From positions 793,046-857,045 of the forward strand of contig JANVYR010000001.1 of the NCBI GenBank assembly GCA_030059665.1: a stretch of DNA of 64,000 nt, written 5' to 3'. Below are positions 22,341 to 28,938 of this stretch, in pieces (position 1 is the stretch's first letter; each line of letters begins with the position of its first letter). Position numbers and translations under genes: made by a program. Source of the DNA: Candidatus Calditenuis fumarioli. GTDB lineage: Archaea > Thermoproteota > Nitrososphaeria_A > Caldarchaeales > Calditenuaceae. The notes under the pieces were generated by a model. The model saw nothing but the letters and a program-made list of their open reading frames with translations. It made no database searches and had not been told where the DNA came from.

Positions 22341-23135
22341 TCACCGCTTCCTGAAATCGGTGATCTCCTTGAAGAGCTGGCCCGCCTTGTGCACCCTGAC
22401 CGCTATCAGGTCCTCGATCCCCGAGGTGGCTATTTTCCTGCCGAGGACCTCCTCGACCTGGAAGACGCCTGCCTCGTTGACGATGTGCACGTCGATCCGA
22501 AGGGGCCTGCTATCTCCCCTGTGGATCTCGACGGAGGAGATGGCGAGCGCCGAGAGCGCGTGTATGTCGGACTTCCCGTGCCGGTACGGGATCCTTGCCC
22601 TTCCCTCGCTCATGTCAGTTCCGTCGGCCACCTTCACGATCCCCGCCTCCACCGTCAGCGACTGGACGCTCTCGTCGTGGCTGAGGATGCAGTGGAGGAC
22701 CTCCGTCCTGATCCTCCGCTCAATCCTCCCGCGCCCGTACACCTTTGGGAGGATCTCCGAGAGGACGCGGTCCGCGATGAAGACGCCCGTGAGGTGATGC
22801 ATGGTCCTGTGCACCATGTTTCCTATGTCGTGGAGGTAGGCGCCGAGCATGGTTATGGCCATCGCGTCCTCGTGCCTGATCCCGTCCAGGCCAACGGTGG
22901 AGAACTTGATCCCGCTGGCCCTCAGGACGTCGAATATCTCGAGCGCCGCACCGGCAACTATCCTGGCGTGCATCGGCCCGTGATCGTTGTAGAAGAGGCG
23001 CTTCACCACCATCTCGTTGCACAGCTCGAGGTAGTCCTGGACCTCCTCGCTCCCCTCCAGGAGCTCGAGGAGCGCCTCCAGCTTCTCCTTCCCCTTCACC
23101 TTCTCCTTGAGGAGCTGCGCCGAGACCCTCACCAA
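22341..23135 (-). CDS. HD-domain phosphohydrolase (COG3294-like)
   Basis: NDHGPMH, LHDIG, H+D, ADGTDMSEGRAR, HALSA. Confidence 0.85.
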   Translation of the reverse strand: MVRVSAQLLKEKVKGKEKLEALLELLEGSEEVQDYLELCNEMVVKRLFYNDHGPMHARIVAGAALEIFDVLRASGIKFSTVGLDGIRHEDAMAITMLGAYLHDIGNMVHRTMHHLTGVFIADRVLSEILPKVYGRGRIERRIRTEVLHCILSHDESVQSLTVEAGIVKVADGTDMSEGRARIPYRHGKSDIHALSALAISSVEIHRGDSRPLRIDVHIVNEAGVFQVEEVLGRKIATSGIEDLIAVRVHKAGQLFKEITDFRKR

Positions 23136-23251: not shown

Positions 23252-24724
23252 TCACCTGACATCCGGGTAGGAAAGGGCTCGGGAAAGCCACGCCTTAAGC
23301 TCCGATACCGGAACCCTCTCCTGCCTCGTGGTGTCCCTGTCCCTGACCGTAACGGTGTCGTCCTGGAGCGTCTGGTAGTCCACGGTGACGCAGAAGGGAA
23401 CCCCGATCTCGTCGAGCATCCGGTACCTCTTCCCGATCGTGTCGTCGGCCTCGTAGACCGCATCGAAGTCGATCCTGAGGGCCTCGTAGACCTCCATCGC
23501 CTTCTCCGGGAGGCCGTCCCTGTCCACCAGCGGAAGCACCGCTACCTGCACGGGTGCGAGGAATGGCGGCAGCCTCAGTACCCTTCGGCGGCCGTCGCTG
23601 GTGAGGTTGTGCTCGAGCAGGACGTAGACGCTACGGTCGACGCCCATCGAGAGCTCGAAGACGTGCGGGACGAACTTCCTTCCCCTGTTGTATGCGGTCA
23701 GGTCCTTCCCGCTGACCCTCATGTGACCCGAGAGGTCGTAGTCCCCCCTGTAGTTGCATGCCACGAGCTCGACCCAGCCCAGCGACGTCTGGACCTCCAG
23801 GTCCCACGACTCCCTGGCGTAGAAGGGCTTCTCGTCCTCGCCGAGCCTCCTCAACCTGATCCTCGTCCTGTCTATCCCGATGATCTCGTAGAACCTCTGT
23901 ATCAGCGCGAGGTAGTAGGCCTCTATCCTCATCGGCACAAGTCCCTCCCTGACCGCTTCCTCGGCCGTGATCTCCGTCACCGACTCGCCGTCGTGCGCGA
24001 GCCTGAGCCTGTGGTCCTTGAGCCTGGCCCACCTTCTTTCGTCCAGGTCGTCCTCCGGGTCGAAGAGGACCTCGACCTCTGCCTGGTAGAACTCCCTAAG
24101 CCTCAGCAGCCCCTGTCGGGGCGAGATCTCGTTCCTGAAGCTCTTGCCGAACTGGCATAGCGGCAACGGGAACCTAGACCAGCCTATCTTGTAGACCCTG
24201 AGGAAGTCGATAAAGAGGGACTGGCACGTCTCGGGTCTCAGGTAGGCCTCCGCACCCTCCCCTCCAACGGAGACCCTGAACATCATGTTGAACCTCGTCA
24301 CCTCTGAGAGCTCGCCGCCGCAGCTCGGGCACCTCACGCCCTCCCTCAGGATCATCGCGTAGATCTCGCTGTCCGGTAGGCGCTCGGGCACGATCTTGCC
24401 GGTCTTCTCCTGGAGGAGTCTGTCGGCCCTGAACACCGAGCCGCATCGGAGGCACCTGGTTATCGGGTCGGCGAACGACTCGAGGTGCCCGGAAGCGACG
24501 AAGACGTCCTTCGCCATGATCACCGAACCGTCGAGCTCCACCATCCCGTCGTACCTGACCACGTACCTCCTCCAAGCCTCGACGTACCTGTTCTTCAGCG
24601 CGTTCCCCAGCGGTCCGTAGTCCCAGAAGCCAGCCGGTGCACCGTCGTATATCTCGCAGGATGGGAAGTAGAACCCCCTCCGCAGCGCGAGCTCCATCAC
24701 CTCGTCGTAAGCCCTTCCTGACAT
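23252..24724 (-). CDS. glyS: Glycine--tRNA ligase (alpha2, archaeal/eukaryal type)
   Basis: RRGFYFPSCEIY, YLRPETCQ, GKSFRNEISPRQGLLRLREF, IGKRYR.DEIGVPFCVTVD. Confidence 0.96.
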   Translation of the reverse strand: MSGRAYDEVMELALRRGFYFPSCEIYDGAPAGFWDYGPLGNALKNRYVEAWRRYVVRYDGMVELDGSVIMAKDVFVASGHLESFADPITRCLRCGSVFRADRLLQEKTGKIVPERLPDSEIYAMILREGVRCPSCGGELSEVTRFNMMFRVSVGGEGAEAYLRPETCQSLFIDFLRVYKIGWSRFPLPLCQFGKSFRNEISPRQGLLRLREFYQAEVEVLFDPEDDLDERRWARLKDHRLRLAHDGESVTEITAEEAVREGLVPMRIEAYYLALIQRFYEIIGIDRTRIRLRRLGEDEKPFYARESWDLEVQTSLGWVELVACNYRGDYDLSGHMRVSGKDLTAYNRGRKFVPHVFELSMGVDRSVYVLLEHNLTSDGRRRVLRLPPFLAPVQVAVLPLVDRDGLPEKAMEVYEALRIDFDAVYEADDTIGKRYRMLDEIGVPFCVTVDYQTLQDDTVTVRDRDTTRQERVPVSELKAWLSRALSYPDVR

Positions 24725-24821
24725 CCCGCCACCCGTTCGTCCCCTCACCGGAGCTATTTGAGCGTCGGTTTCGCAGGAGCGGGTTCACTCCACGGATGTC
24801 GTCTTTGCGTTGACCGTGCCT

Positions 24822-25661
24822 TCAGCCGAGTGGGGCCCCGCAGTTCGGACACCTGCCCCCTATGTCGCGCCAGGTCTCCACGCACTCCCTGTGCATTGGA
24901 GCACCGCAGGAGCCGCAGGTCTTCAGCGCGCTGGCCGGGATCTGATCGCCGCAGATGGCGCACTCCATGCTGGCTGCTTGTGCCCTCGGAGGCTGGACGG
25001 CCTGAGGTCCAACGGCGGCCCTCTCGGCCTGCGAGTCCCTGACCTCTACTGCGGATTCCTCCTGCCTGAGGAGCTCCTCGAAGACCTCCTCCTCCCTGCT
25101 CAGGGAGGGCTCCTCGTAGCTGGTGACCGTCCCCGTCTCGTACTCCACAGCCGGGACCTGCGAGGGCGTGTAGGCCATTATCGGTACCTGCGAGGGAGAG
25201 GGCGAGGGCCTCAGGGCCACAAATCCTATCACAGCGGATATGAACCCTCCCCCTGCCATGGCCACGCCGGTGAAGAGCGCCGCGATCGCTCCCACCTCGG
25301 GCTTGAACTGGACCTCAAGAGACGGCAACTGGTGGAGGATGACGTACAGCGGCGAGAGGATCGCGAGCGCTGCTCCTCCGAGGGCCAGTGCCGGGACCGT
25401 GAAGCGCAGGACCTTGACGTTCGAGGAGAGGGACGCCAGCACCCCAGCGCCCCCGGCCAGTAGGCCCGCCAGGATGGAGAGGGTGAAGCTCCAGCTCAGG
25501 ACGAACCCCTGGATGCCCCGGACGACGACGTTGTCGTTCAGGAGCGAGGCCCAGTCCAGCAGCAGCGTCAGGACGTGGATCGCGCCGAGCACCGCGATCA
25601 GCGATCCCACCCGGATCAGCCTCACCAGCGCGTCCCTTACGTCGGTCCCCGTGACGAGCAT
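24822..25661 (-). CDS. Four-TM membrane protein with C-terminal C4HC3 RING-like zinc finger
   Basis: Four hydrophobic segments, Pro/Glu-rich linker, CAIC-x11-CGSC-x4-H-x2-C-VETW-x6-CPNC. Confidence 0.75.
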   Translation of the reverse strand: MLVTGTDVRDALVRLIRVGSLIAVLGAIHVLTLLLDWASLLNDNVVVRGIQGFVLSWSFTLSILAGLLAGGAGVLASLSSNVKVLRFTVPALALGGAALAILSPLYVILHQLPSLEVQFKPEVGAIAALFTGVAMAGGGFISAVIGFVALRPSPSPSQVPIMAYTPSQVPAVEYETGTVTSYEEPSLSREEEVFEELLRQEESAVEVRDSQAERAAVGPQAVQPPRAQAASMECAICGDQIPASALKTCGSCGAPMHRECVETWRDIGGRCPNCGAPLG

Positions 25662-25760
25662 GCCTGCGTGTCCACCACTCAGCTCGTATATAAGTCGGCA
25701 CGGCGCATGGGATGCGGACGCTTCACGGGTAGCGCCGCCGTCCGGTAAGGGGTCGCTCGT

Positions 25761-26210
25761 TCATGGAACCTCCTTCACGGTCTCGAAGACGAAGCAGGTC
25801 TCGGTCCTGGCGACGCTCTTCATGGTCCTGAGACGGTCTATCACCAGCCTGCCCACGTCCTCCGTCGAGGCCGCACGGACCTTCAGGATCATGTCCCACT
25901 GGCCGCTCACAAGGTGGACCTCGTAGACGTCCTCGATCCGCGCTATCTGGGAGGCCAGCTCCCGTTGCGATATCTCCTGAGCTGGAGTGAACGAGACCAG
26001 CACGAACGCGGTCGTCCCGCGTCCTATCTTGGCGTAGTCCGGTATCGCGGTGAAGCTCCTGATGTACCCGAGCTCCGTCAGCCGCCGAACGCGCTCCTGA
26101 ACCGTCGTCCTCGGTATCGAGAGCTCCGCCGCGAGCTCGGTGAACGACTTCCTCGCGTCCCGCCTGAGCGCCTCCAGTATCCTCAGGTCCCTCTCGTCGA
26201 TCTCCGTCAC
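25761..26210 (-). CDS. Lrp/AsnC family transcriptional regulator
   Basis: IDERDLRILEALRRDARKSFTELA HTH; VSGQWD RAM domain; GTG 26210. Confidence 0.92.
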   Translation of the reverse strand: MTEIDERDLRILEALRRDARKSFTELAAELSIPRTTVQERVRRLTELGYIRSFTAIPDYAKIGRGTTAFVLVSFTPAQEISQRELASQIARIEDVYEVHLVSGQWDMILKVRAASTEDVGRLVIDRLRTMKSVARTETCFVFETVKEVP

Positions 26211-26296
26211 GTTGACGGCATCCCAAGGCCCAAATATAACACTGTGACTTAAACAACCGCCTAACACAAGCCGGATTAAGATATTTAAAGGACTTA

Positions 26297-27361
26297 GTGG
26301 AACCGGAGGTGTTGAGCCGCGTCAAGGACGTCGCGATCCTCGGCTACGGAGGGTACGTTCCCCGATACAGGATAAGGGCCTCCGAGATAGCGCGGGTCTG
26401 GGGAAGGGACGACGACGCGCTTCCGATCAAGGAGAAGTCGGTCAACGGGATCGACGAGGACGTGATAACCATGGCCATAGAGGCGTGCAAATACGCGCTG
26501 CGGAGGGCCGGGATAGACGTCCGGAGGATAGGCGCCGTGAACGTGGGGTCCGAGTCCCACCCATACGCGGTAAAGCCGTCGGGGACCGTCGTGGCTGAGG
26601 CGCTCGGGATACCGCCGACGCACCTCTCCGCGGACCTCGAGTTCGCCTGCAAGGCCGGCACCGAGGCGATGCAGATGATCGCGGGCCTGGTGTCTTCTGG
26701 GCTGATAGAATATGGGATAGCGGTTGGAGCTGACACAGCTCAGGGGAGGCCCTCCGATGCCCTCGAGTTCACGGCCGCAGCCGGAGCGGCAGCCTTCGTT
26801 CTGGGCAGGAGCAACGGCGACGAGGTGGCGACGATCGAGCACGTGGTGAGCTACGTCACCGACACGCCCGACTTCTGGAGGAGGGCCCACGAGAGGTATC
26901 CCCGACACGCCTCGAGGTTCACCGGCGAGCCGGCCTACTTCCACCACACGGTATCTGCCGTGAAGGCCCTTCTGGAGGAGACGGGACTGAAGGTCTCCGA
27001 CATCGACTACTTCGTCTTCCATCAGCCCAACTACAAGTTCCCGTACGCCGCCGCGAAGGTCCTGCAGATACCTAAGGAGAAGGTGGATCCCGGGGTCGTG
27101 ACGAACGTGATAGGCAACACCTACGCCGCCTGCTCTCCGCTGGGGCTCGTCAGGGTCCTCGACCACGCCAAGCCCGGGCAGAGGATCGTGCTGACCTCCT
27201 TCGGTTCCGGTGCGGGAAGCGACTCCTTCCTCATCGTGACGAGGGAGGGCCTGGAGAGGAAGAGGAACCTCGCTCCGCTGCTGGACACCCTGATCGCCCG
27301 TGCCAAGTACATCGACTACGCCCAGTACCTGAGGCACCGCGACAAGATCAGGACCTCGTGA
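26297..27361 (+). CDS. Hydroxymethylglutaryl-CoA synthase (archaeal)
   Basis: GSESHPYAVKP, EFACKAGT, FHQPN, GNTYA, SFGSGAGSD. Confidence 0.95.
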   Translation: MEPEVLSRVKDVAILGYGGYVPRYRIRASEIARVWGRDDDALPIKEKSVNGIDEDVITMAIEACKYALRRAGIDVRRIGAVNVGSESHPYAVKPSGTVVAEALGIPPTHLSADLEFACKAGTEAMQMIAGLVSSGLIEYGIAVGADTAQGRPSDALEFTAAAGAAAFVLGRSNGDEVATIEHVVSYVTDTPDFWRRAHERYPRHASRFTGEPAYFHHTVSAVKALLEETGLKVSDIDYFVFHQPNYKFPYAAAKVLQIPKEKVDPGVVTNVIGNTYAACSPLGLVRVLDHAKPGQRIVLTSFGSGAGSDSFLIVTREGLERKRNLAPLLDTLIARAKYIDYAQYLRHRDKIRTS

Positions 27362-27367
27362 TGGTCG

Positions 27368-28534
27368 ATGAGGACGGTCTACTTGGCCGGCGTGGGGTAC
27401 ACGAAGGTCTCCGAGCACTGGGACCGGTCCCTGACGGAGCTGGCCGCTGAGGCGGCGCTCGCTGCGGTGAGGGATGCCGGCGTCGAGCGGGTGGACGCGA
27501 TCTACTTCGCGAACGCGGCCGCAGAGATCACCTCGCACCAGATGGGGATCAGCGCGATCGTCTCAGAGGAGCTCGGTCTCTCCGGCGTTCCCTCCGTCAG
27601 GGTCGAGTGCGGTGAGGCCTCCGGGATGGCGGCGCTCTTTCAGGCACACGCGGCCGTCTCCTCGGGTTTGGCGGAGGTGGCCCTCGTAGTCGGTGCCGAA
27701 AAGCTCTCCGATCTGATGCCGGAGGAGTTCAACACGGTCTTCTCGATGACGCTCCCGTACGAGACGATGGGCTTCGCCGGCGTGACGCCCACCGCGATAG
27801 CGGCCCTGCTCTACCGCGTCTACATGGAACGCTATGAGGTCCCTCAGGAGTTCGTGGCCCAGTTCCCGGCACTGATGCACAGGAACGCGAAGGGGGTGCC
27901 CCACGCCCAGTTCCCGTTCGAGGTGAAGCTAGAGGACGTGCTCTCGTCCCCTCCCGTCGCCCCTCCTCTCAGGAGGCTAGAGTGCACCGCGCCCTGCGAC
28001 GGGGCCGCAGCGGTGGTGCTCGTCTCCGAGGAGTCGGTGGGAGGAGCGAGGTCGGGGACCGTCACGAAGCTCGCAGGCGTCAGCCTGAGGACCGATTACG
28101 CCTCGCCGTTCGATCGGGAGGACCCGCTCCACCTCTCATCGGTCGCGCTCTCGGTGGAGGAGGCCCTGCTACGGTCGGGCATCGACCGCGATGAGCTGGA
28201 CGTCCTCGAGCTCCACGATTCCTTCTCGATCATGGCTCCTCTGGTGCTGGAGAGCGCCGGTTTCTCTCCGAAGGGGAGGAGCGGCCTCGAGCTGAAGGAG
28301 GGGAGGTTCGAGCTCGGAGGGGAGCTTCCCATCAACACCTTCGGCGGGCTGAAGGCGAGGGGTCATCCTTTCGGGGCATCTGCGCTCTACCAGGTCGCGG
28401 AGCTCCACCTCCAGCTCACAGGGAGGGCGGGGAAGAACCAGCTGGACAGGGCCAAGAGCGGCATGGCGGTCTCCACCACCGGGTTCGGAGCCCTGTCGGG
28501 TGCGGCAGTCCTCATCGGAGGTGACAGCGCGTGA
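27368..28534 (+). CDS. Acetoacetyl-CoA thiolase (archaeal)
   Basis: VRVECGEAS catalytic Cys, DGAAA, ELHDSF, NTFGGLKARGHP. Confidence 0.92.
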   Translation: MRTVYLAGVGYTKVSEHWDRSLTELAAEAALAAVRDAGVERVDAIYFANAAAEITSHQMGISAIVSEELGLSGVPSVRVECGEASGMAALFQAHAAVSSGLAEVALVVGAEKLSDLMPEEFNTVFSMTLPYETMGFAGVTPTAIAALLYRVYMERYEVPQEFVAQFPALMHRNAKGVPHAQFPFEVKLEDVLSSPPVAPPLRRLECTAPCDGAAAVVLVSEESVGGARSGTVTKLAGVSLRTDYASPFDREDPLHLSSVALSVEEALLRSGIDRDELDVLELHDSFSIMAPLVLESAGFSPKGRSGLELKEGRFELGGELPINTFGGLKARGHPFGASALYQVAELHLQLTGRAGKNQLDRAKSGMAVSTTGFGALSGAAVLIGGDSA

Positions 28535-28938
28535 GGCCCGGCATACGTCCCCAGGAGCACTGGCGCTCGAAGAGGTTCAGGTACATGCTGGAGGTGCTCA
28601 GGTGTGCCAACTGCGGCACCGTCAACGCCACCCGCAGGTCAGTCTGCCGTCGCTGCAGGTCCACCTCCCTCGTCCGCGAGAGGCTTCCAGAGAGGGCCAG
28701 GCTCTTGGCCTTCACGGAGGTCAAGTCCGCGACCGACGTGCACGACGAGATGGCTCCCTACCTGGTGGGCCTGCTCGAGTTCGAGGACGGCACGAGGATA
28801 GTGGCGCAGCTGACGGACGCCGACTACGAGGAGCTCAGGCCCGGCATGGAGATGGAGATGGTCGTCCGGAAGATCGCCCAGGACGGCGAGTCCGGCGTGA
28901 TAGTCTACGGCTTCAAGTTCAGGCCCGTCGTCTCCTGA
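28531..28938 (+). CDS. DUF35 Zn-ribbon/OB-fold scaffold of the thiolase-HMGCS complex
   Basis: CANCG..CRRC followed by OB fold; GTGA overlap with thiolase. Confidence 0.92.
   Translation: MRPGIRPQEHWRSKRFRYMLEVLRCANCGTVNATRRSVCRRCRSTSLVRERLPERARLLAFTEVKSATDVHDEMAPYLVGLLEFEDGTRIVAQLTDADYEELRPGMEMEMVVRKIAQDGESGVIVYGFKFRPVVS

Follow-up and report, generated by a model that had tools for sequence, protein, structure and literature searches.

Does the eukaryote-like ubiquitin system of the archaeal order Caldarchaeales ('Aigarchaeota') extend to the cell membrane? So far, reconstitution of archaeal ubiquitination has relied solely on a soluble small RING ubiquitin ligase (E3) and an artificial substrate. 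The question is raised by an open reading frame (ORF) in a 64,000-nucleotide (nt) stretch of the genome of the hot-spring archaeon Candidatus Calditenuis fumarioli, referred to here as the window (contig JANVYR010000001.1; G000:C1:793046-857045, where G000 is this genome). A first-pass annotation of the window had described the ORF product as a polytopic membrane protein with a C-terminal RING-like finger and had proposed it as a membrane E3. We confirmed the observation of a membrane protein with a C-terminal RING finger, which we call TM-RING (TM for transmembrane), and found the overall interpretation partly supported. We consider it reasonably probable that TM-RING is a membrane-anchored RING-type E3 of the Caldarchaeales ubiquitin system, and we present it as a candidate for that role. 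RING chemistry and the archaeal ubiquitin system are already known, and the membrane-embedded architecture had been left uncharacterised. What is new is an order-wide gene with a membrane domain that models as a claudin/TARP-like tetraspan.

The RING finger and its putative E2 surface

The ORF, read directly from the DNA, is intact. It starts with ATG, occupies positions 24822..25661 on the minus strand (stop codon, 24822-24824), and encodes 279 residues, in which a four-TM domain is followed by a linker and a RING finger; orthologues align from the same start Met. Positions here and below are those of the window unless a locus is named, and all parts of the gene lie on its minus strand. The finger (24825..24974, residues 230-279) has the ligand pattern C234-x2-C237-x11-C249-x2-C252-x4-H257-x2-C260-x10-C271-x2-C274 within the last 46 residues of the protein, exactly as first described, and both DNA and translation bear this out. 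An Ile separates the first two Cys residues, W264 stands four residues past C260, and P272 directly follows C271; the Trp and the Pro had been singled out earlier as RING hallmarks, and both are there. So is the predicted gap at the place of the PHD-type Trp, two residues before the seventh ligand, where residues 269-270 are Gly and Arg. All eight ligands and P272 are invariant in the 26 orthologues that make up our family profile. The exact ligand pattern has a single match when the 1.57-Mb genome is translated in six frames, and a relaxed pattern has two, the other being a 71-residue small RING finger protein (srfp). The single exact occurrence indicates that the ligand pattern is more than chance.

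We then compared the finger with known domain families. Pfam zf-RING_2 (PF13639) matched the whole protein with 28.9 bits and the finger alone with 33.9 bits, above its cut-off of 27.3, and it matched all 26 family members at E<=1e-3, compared with 14 for Prok-RING_1 and three each for PHD and DZR. For TM-RING itself, the latter families stayed below their Pfam cut-offs (Prok-RING_1, 21.2 versus 29.1 bits; DZR, 21.1 versus 27.3; PHD (PF00628), 11.5 versus 24), and an NCBIfam scan of the protein returned nothing above cut-off. Close homologues are publicly annotated as 'RING-H2 finger protein' or 'RING finger protein'. In a single-sequence search of the PDB, the best solved relative was the gp78/AMFR RING (1.7e-4), followed by RCHY1, EL5, RNF24, K3, RNF38, and synoviolin. 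A finger profile built from the 26 family fingers and three srfps retrieved 115 PDB sequences at E<=0.01, with active RING-H2 E3s on top (Arkadia, 1.1e-13; EL5, 8e-12; then RNF165, ZNRF1, RNF4, RNF38, RNF24, RLIM, gp78 at 1e-8, and Hrd1 at 1.3e-8); the first PHD in that list was MLL3, at 2.1e-4. Gapless alignments to gp78 and Arkadia place C252 at canonical ligand 3 and an Ala at the position of the canonical ligand-4 His, in place of which TM-RING has an extra Cys, C249, three residues before canonical ligand 3. The finger is a C4HC3 variant, where C3H2C3 is the RING-H2 norm.

Structure prediction points in the same direction. The AlphaFold2 (AF2) model of the finger has a mean predicted local distance difference test score (pLDDT) of 84.1. 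The top rows of a Foldseek search with it were nearly all RING/U-box domains, the best being RING1B (6.3e-3) and EL5 and gp78 (both 7.2e-3), with a root-mean-square deviation (rmsd) of ~2 Å, and nothing at E<=1e-3. In VIA-align the best Z was 6.2, and nearly all 50 rows were RING/U-box, including EL5 with an rmsd of 2.1 over 49 columns. EL5 matched the finger model with TM-scores of 0.63/0.66 and an rmsd of 2.1. These fold-search scores are low because the finger domain has only 58 residues. No PHD fold stood among the rows listed by Foldseek or VIA-align, an absence from a list that does not amount to exclusion. At the model level the fold appears to be the cross-brace of the RING/U-box class. 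Judged from sequence and model together, the finger is a RING-H2 derivative and not a PHD, in agreement with the first-pass preference for RING over a PHD or a plain double zinc ribbon.

The residues with which a RING would contact its ubiquitin-conjugating enzyme (E2) are largely retained. By alignment, I236, W264, and P272 form the putative E2 surface of the finger; in the 26-orthologue alignment, I236 is Ile in 25 members and Met in one, and W264 is Trp in 22 and Tyr in four. I236 and W264 align as the conserved counterparts of I30 and W58 in the srfp of the related archaeon Candidatus Caldiarchaeum subterraneum, for which the biochemical study reported that ubiquitylation was lost with I30Q and impaired with W58A and with R69A (PMC5654768). 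At the position of the linchpin Arg/Lys, directly after the last Cys, TM-RING has Gly275.

The membrane domain

All four TM helices predicted at the outset were recovered. A Kyte-Doolittle plot (19-residue window, >=1.6) gave four segments, at about residues 15-41, 50-79, 84-110, and 123-151, and AF2 placed helices at 6-34, 56-78, 82-114, and 123-149, with pLDDT values of 84-98 in the membrane domain and a mean of 82.6 over the whole model. Combining alignment, hydropathy, and AF2, we delimited TM1 (25551..25619, about residues 15-37), TM2 (25428..25508, about residues 52-78), TM3 (25332..25412, about residues 84-110, with P104 in 25 of the 26 orthologues), and TM4 (25209..25295, about residues 123-151). 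Outer loop 1 (25509..25550, residues 38-51) forms a beta hairpin in the model (strands 36-42 and 46-51), which is joined by strand 118-121 of outer loop 2 (25296..25331, residues 111-122), giving a three-stranded sheet that faces outward. Basic residues are found in the N-terminal tail and in the second of the three loops between helices (K83 and R86, with no acidic residue), and the first and third loops are neutral or acidic. By the positive-inside rule, this distribution of Lys and Arg suggests that both termini are cytoplasmic, so that the finger and both protein ends would face the cytoplasm.

The linker between TM4 and the finger (24975..25208, residues 152-229) would be a cytoplasmic acidic, Pro-rich tether; it is mostly of low model confidence, apart from one predicted helix at 188-214. 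The earlier description of it as Pro/Glu/Gln-rich is roughly right by composition, since the 80 residues from 151 to 230 comprise 13 Glu, 10 Pro, 10 Ala, 9 Ser, 9 Val, and 7 Gln. Its length and sequence differ among genera in the orthologue alignment. The membrane domain holds residues that are invariant in all 26 orthologues: R14, G26, H29, L33, and W37 in or next to TM1, G52, S62, and G70 in TM2, S103 and Y106 in TM3, and G124 in TM4. As far as this alignment indicates, the domain is conserved beyond the needs of a simple anchor, and in the model the polar H29, S62, S103, and Y106 would sit in the outer half of the bundle.

What does this domain resemble? Foldseek of the AF2 model against the PDB found no match at E<=1e-3; the best row had 2.5e-3, and nearly all rows were claudins, TARP gamma, Cav gamma, or GARLH4, with target-normalised TM-scores of up to 0.58. 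In the independent VIA-align search (48,161 chains), the first 11 rows all belonged to the claudin/PMP22/TARP superfamily (Z 11.7-14.0), headed by GARLH4 (Z 14.0, rmsd 3.5, 148 aligned) and claudin-15 (Z 14.0, rmsd 3.1, 138 aligned) and including MP20 (13.3), TARP (13.2), claudin-19 (13.1), Cav gamma (12.9), and a designed claudin fold (12.1); these values are to be read with the caveat that helical bundles reach Z ~13-14 by chance and commonly score under about 13, generic four-helix bundles attaining up to 11.7 in the same search. No claudin-type Pfam family appeared among the 25 listed of 29 matches (E<=10) or among the 18 families matched by members, and the best score in an ESM Atlas search with residues 1-155 was 0.82, too low to be useful. 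We regard 'claudin-like tetraspan' as a modelling lead and not as family membership.

Distribution and genomic neighborhood

The first-pass annotation had pointed to ubiquitin, E1, and E2 genes and to phyletic co-occurrence as informative. All three genes are encoded in this genome: ubiquitin (78 residues, ending in GG), E2 (167 residues), and E1 (394 residues) lie head to tail at C1:98.5-100.5 kb (L006), and the HPN motif and catalytic Cys of E2 are invariant across 26 relatives. The 71-residue srfp and two coiled-coil genes are found at C1:264.6-266.3 kb (L009), an Rpn11-like JAB gene and a coiled-coil gene at C1:29.8-31.2 kb (L012), and TM-RING with the glycyl-tRNA synthetase (GlyRS) gene at C1:816.3-818.7 kb (window 23252-25661). 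The ubiquitin genes, which form one uninterrupted supercluster in three sister families, are thus dispersed here over four pieces, each of which has kept its internal partners.

We read four loci from these sister families, one of them in a single-contig 1.68-Mb genome (G012) in which the genes are laid out as in the published C. subterraneum operon. All four share one order, with a coiled-coil gene (-), Rpn11 (-), ubiquitin, E2, E1, srfp, and a ~110-residue coiled-coil gene (+), continuing with a ~280-residue coiled-coil gene (-), TM-RING (+), and GlyRS (+), so the adjacency of TM-RING and GlyRS is also kept in every one. Of 57 genomes of the sister families f2-f4, 39 (13/18 in f2, 3/4 in f3, and 23/35 in f4) have E2 and TM-RING no more than 5.2 kb apart on one contig, with TM-RING 3-5 kb downstream of E2 and adjoining the srfp region; in the others, the two genes are on different contigs or no copy was detected, and they are never far apart on the same contig. 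The window's own family has no linkage within 5.2 kb in any of its 19 genomes, and the three with both genes on one contig have them 86-719 kb apart. Even in this family, 10 of the 12 genomes from genera g2-g4 keep srfp at a distance of ~2 kb or less from TM-RING; in the window's own genus, this link is seen in none of seven genomes. Overall, the block srfp-cc110-cc280-TM-RING, where cc denotes the coiled-coil genes, is conserved in 14 of 15 genera. The sister-family linkage and the proximity of srfp in g2-g4 argue that, as read from gene order, TM-RING was ancestrally part of the ubiquitin neighborhood and stayed with GlyRS when that neighborhood broke up in this genus.

Two further features of these loci may be recorded. 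In every locus read, the ubiquitin genes are flanked by genes for three coiled-coil proteins (~110, 280, and 264-318 residues), which remain with srfp or Rpn11 after rearrangement (L053 4620..5764; L052 960..1754; L009 1829..3127; L012 2022..2978). In Pfam the three proteins gave only sub-threshold generic coiled-coil matches, and they may be unrecognised parts of the ubiquitin system. The genome also has a second ubiquitin-like cluster at G000:C2:190.8-194.6 kb (L007 881..4531), which encodes a 99-residue RING-like protein (Prok-RING_1, 25 bits, below cut-off), two unnamed proteins of 280 and 361 residues, a 205-residue JAB peptidase, and a 272-residue fusion of a ubiquitin-like domain (ending in PVGG) with an E2-like domain (UQ_con, 30.4 bits). 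This second E2-like match was seen only in the window's own genus, in six of seven genomes including this one, one of them below cut-off.

We searched the family profile across 76 genomes of the order and found full-length TM-RING in 71; in another (G015), a copy is divided between two contig ends. In the other four it was not detected: G050, which is 59% complete and in which E2 was also not found; G066 and G071, whose contigs stop before the expected site; and G062, considered below. A 236-residue ORF at G071:C9 (18 bits) was rejected as an orthologue, as it is a different zinc-ribbon membrane protein. In an even selection of 301 genomes of the phylum (43 of the order and 258 others), full-length TM-RING was present in 42 of the 43 order genomes and in none of the 258 others, where the only matches were weak and partial and fell mainly in the finger region. 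Canonical E2 was present in 43/43 order genomes of this sample; genomes outside the order gave five partial E2-like matches above cut-off and two below, none of them in a genome with the TM-RING family. Among the genomes searched, then, the family was found only in those bearing E2.

Beyond the genomes, a search of 1.84 billion representative proteins gave 15 at E<=1e-30, mostly full-length family members or fragments; the weakest of the 15 (P0054, 745 residues) is a multi-RING protein matched by the finger alone. The 36,174 proteins at E<=1e-3 appear to be finger-only matches, judged from the 150 listed and the sequences inspected. Four metagenomic proteins (P0064, P0099, P0158, and P0135) have the same ligand pattern joined to other or diverged membrane domains, consisting of at least four TM helices or of a signal peptide, an ectodomain, and one TM helix. 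From their architecture, membrane-tethered fingers of this archaeal type therefore appear to exist beyond the order; no relatives of P0064, P0099, or P0158 were found in the scanned genome contigs. Contigs from the hot-spring metagenomes of 12 studies contain the locus itself in nearly identical form, with three differences inside the ORF in two metagenome runs, all synonymous third-position changes.

As for the immediate surroundings, the GlyRS gene (23252..24748, minus strand), named from its sequence and orthologue length, begins 73 nt downstream of TM-RING, and a Pfam-confirmed Lrp/AsnC regulator gene (25761..26267, minus strand) lies directly upstream. A TATA-like box read from the sequence, cttatata (25687..25694, minus strand), stands ~29 nt 5' of the ATG and is a possible promoter of the gene's own, which would give a near-leaderless mRNA. 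A promoter and terminator scan of the locus found nothing, the scan being of a bacterial type that is not applicable to an archaeon. The neighbors in 26297-28938 and 22341-23135 include, from their sequences, HMG-CoA synthase, thiolase, and then a 135-residue ORF on the plus strand that is likely DUF35, as well as an HD-domain protein matched by Pfam. In a sister-family genome (L052), the ubiquitin cluster is likewise bordered by thiolase and DUF35-like genes, which indicates that the region is syntenic but rearranged.

Competing readings and relation to known systems

If TM-RING is an E3, how would it work? The four helices would pack into a compact tetraspan bundle that crosses the cell membrane and leaves both termini in the cytoplasm; according to the model, a small beta sheet would face outward. 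A flexible acidic linker of ~80 residues, as sequence and model suggest, would tether the cytoplasmic RING finger. In our proposal, I236, W264, and P272 are the residues through which the finger would bind the one canonical E2 of the genome in its ubiquitin-charged form; the finger may then promote ubiquitin transfer to lysines of proteins near the membrane. More speculatively, the conserved tetraspan domain could serve as a localising or client-binding module. A tethered RING that is order-wide and comes from the same ancestral neighborhood as the ubiquitin genes makes the cell membrane a concrete place to seek a role for archaeal ubiquitination, and TM-RING offers a small thermostable construct for testing with ubiquitin, E1, and E2. 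Should it prove active, TM-RING would be the first E3 of the membrane-bound kind from a non-eukaryote, as well as a minimal system for studying how TM-RING ligases choose their clients.

Several observations weigh against the ligase reading. The position of the linchpin is Gly in 19, Lys in five, and Asn in two of the 26 family members, so Arg/Lys is absent in 21, and R69A, at the linchpin position of srfp, impaired that protein, according to the available text (PMC5654768). At the level of sequence, this Gly is what speaks most strongly against full E3 competence of TM-RING on its own. In this genome and genus, no ubiquitin gene is linked to TM-RING; here, E2 is 719 kb and srfp 553 kb away. 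GlyRS is the partner kept everywhere, and closeness to the operon could therefore be inherited synteny; a functional tie to GlyRS was itself considered as the principal explanation and rejected, as the adjacency is universal and nothing else links the two genes. G062, 95% complete, has E2, E1, srfp, and both coiled-coil genes, and no TM-RING was found there: the expected site, in the first 740 nt of its contig (G062:C46:1-3500, L062), is without a TM-RING ORF, and none was found elsewhere in the assembly. Since E2 and TM-RING are both confined to one clade, which both traits mark, finding them together amounts to one evolutionary event and not to statistical proof. In two metatranscriptome runs, no RNA contig covered the TM-RING ORF, although contigs cannot show absence; the sole RNA contig, from one of the two, is 268 nt long and lies inside the GlyRS gene (23538-23805). 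Finally, RING-type fingers can, by analogy, have non-ligase roles, and the cellulose-synthase zinc finger is among the matches.

Because the linchpin is missing, we take a non-catalytic or partner-dependent RING as a serious alternative, and it comes in two forms. The finger might be a non-catalytic zinc module for oligomerisation or docking, as proposed for the N-terminal finger of plant cellulose synthase, on a tetraspan protein whose function as scaffold, sensor, or auxiliary subunit is unrelated to ubiquitin. The presence of cellulose-synthase zinc fingers among both the sequence and the fold matches is in keeping with this, as are the separation of TM-RING from the ubiquitin genes in this genus and its constant pairing with GlyRS, and claudin-fold proteins are typically scaffolds or auxiliary subunits. 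Against it stand the order-wide conservation of the E2-contact Ile, Trp, and Pro, profile matches in which active E3s lead by 5-9 orders of magnitude, and a family found only alongside canonical E2 and ancestrally adjacent to srfp and the operon; on this evidence, we judge it unlikely, though it deserves some weight. Alternatively, TM-RING could be a membrane docking subunit that pairs with srfp and the coiled-coil proteins, perhaps as a RING heterodimer in which srfp supplies catalysis. Many eukaryotic RING pairs have one weak partner; here, the residue after the last Cys is Lys in the genome's own srfp and Gly in TM-RING, and the conserved four-gene block would suit such a complex. Against this, the srfp block and TM-RING are 553 kb apart in this genus, and we consider the idea decidedly improbable. 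Still more remote, to the point of being very hard to sustain, is the notion of a PHD-like finger or a plain double zinc ribbon with nucleic acid, peptide, or lipid as its binding partner: ligands 3-5, spaced C-x2-C-x4-H, do conform to the PHD pattern, and Pfam gives weak matches to DZR, C1_1, and PHD, but these matches are all below cut-off, PHD reaches three family members where zf-RING_2 reaches 26, the diagnostic Trp is missing, and the rows listed by the two fold searches, without amounting to exclusion, hold no PHD.

We thus retain the membrane-anchored E3 as our preferred reading of TM-RING. A far bolder extension would be that the ancestral Caldarchaeales ubiquitin system already had a dedicated membrane-embedded E3, in which the claudin-like tetraspan recognises membrane proteins in the bilayer and the RING tags them. 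The logic of ubiquitin control of membrane proteins, as in endoplasmic-reticulum-associated degradation (ERAD), MARCH ligases, and receptor down-regulation, would then predate eukaryotes, and the claudin/PMP22 fold would have an archaeal representative. We mention this scenario as an unlikely one.

Has the protein been noticed before? Within the available text of each paper, Nunoura 2011 describes srfp only (PMC3082918); Hennell James 2017 reconstituted E1, E2, and srfp, found srfp active, and does not use the word 'transmembrane' (PMC5654768); and Fuchs et al. 2018 devote one sentence to 'a second E3 protein' adjoining the C. subterraneum operon, with no analysis of it and without the word 'membrane' (PMC6043591). 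Hua 2018 lists 'E3-like' proteins without detail. In G012, the only RING ORF besides srfp is the TM-RING orthologue, ~3 kb downstream of E2, and on this basis the 'second E3 protein' of Fuchs et al. is most likely the TM-RING orthologue. We found no description of an archaeal membrane-anchored or transmembrane RING E3 in the open-access full-text literature searched.

Among the closest known systems is srfp. As far as the available texts go, C. subterraneum srfp (CSUB_C1477) has a ligand pattern identical to that of the TM-RING finger (PMC3082918), also has the extra Cys ahead of ligand 3 ('C3B'), and likewise carries the Ile and Trp that contact E2 (PMC5654768). The two occur in the same clade, were ancestrally ~1.4 kb apart, and are similar enough for the TM-RING family profile to match srfps at 1e-14 to 1e-7. 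They differ in that srfp is soluble, with open frames of ~70-125 residues, whereas TM-RING has 279 residues with a conserved four-TM domain and a long linker; in the residue after the last Cys, Arg/Lys in srfp and Gly in TM-RING; and in their places, srfp being encoded within ubiquitin-E2-E1-srfp and TM-RING, in relatives, beyond srfp and two coiled-coil genes. Because the genome has a separate srfp, at C1:264.6 kb, the two are paralogues and not orthologues.

Among prokaryotic domain families, Prok-RING_1 (PF14446) is tied to neighborhoods of ubiquitin, E1, E2, and JAB genes and is the label in the precomputed annotation of 7 of 12 TM-RING homologues, but zf-RING_2 fits all members better. 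Bacterial members of Prok-RING_1 are said to carry TM helices. For the membrane domain, the nearest comparison at the model level is with claudin, PMP22, MP20, TARP-gamma, Cav-gamma, and GARLH proteins, which like the TM-RING model have a four-helix bundle with N and C termini inside and an outward sheet from outer loops 1 and 2. TM-RING departs from these folds in its identity of only 6-18% in the listed rows, in three modelled strands instead of five, and in loop 1, which has no Cys and therefore no cysteine pair; the claudin-type sequence signature is a loop-1 W...C...C motif. To our knowledge, a RING has not been described in any protein with a claudin fold.

A further comparison is with the eukaryotic membrane ligases Hrd1/synoviolin, gp78/AMFR, RNF24, RNF13, and ATL/EL5, in which, as in TM-RING, one or more membrane segments are followed by a cytoplasmic C-terminal RING-H2 domain; in both sequence and fold searches, the RING domains of these ligases rank among the closest matches of the finger. 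TM-RING differs from them in ligand 4, where it has a shifted Cys in place of His, and in the linchpin, absent here. The parallel with Hrd1 drawn in the first-pass annotation thus stands for domain order only, since the membrane domain models as claudin/TARP-like and not as a Hrd1-like bundle; no likeness of this domain to those of Hrd1/gp78-type ligases was detected by Pfam, and the fold matches are claudin-like. All membrane-bound ubiquitin ligases characterised to date are eukaryotic, and TM-RING is probably an archaeal enzyme of that kind.

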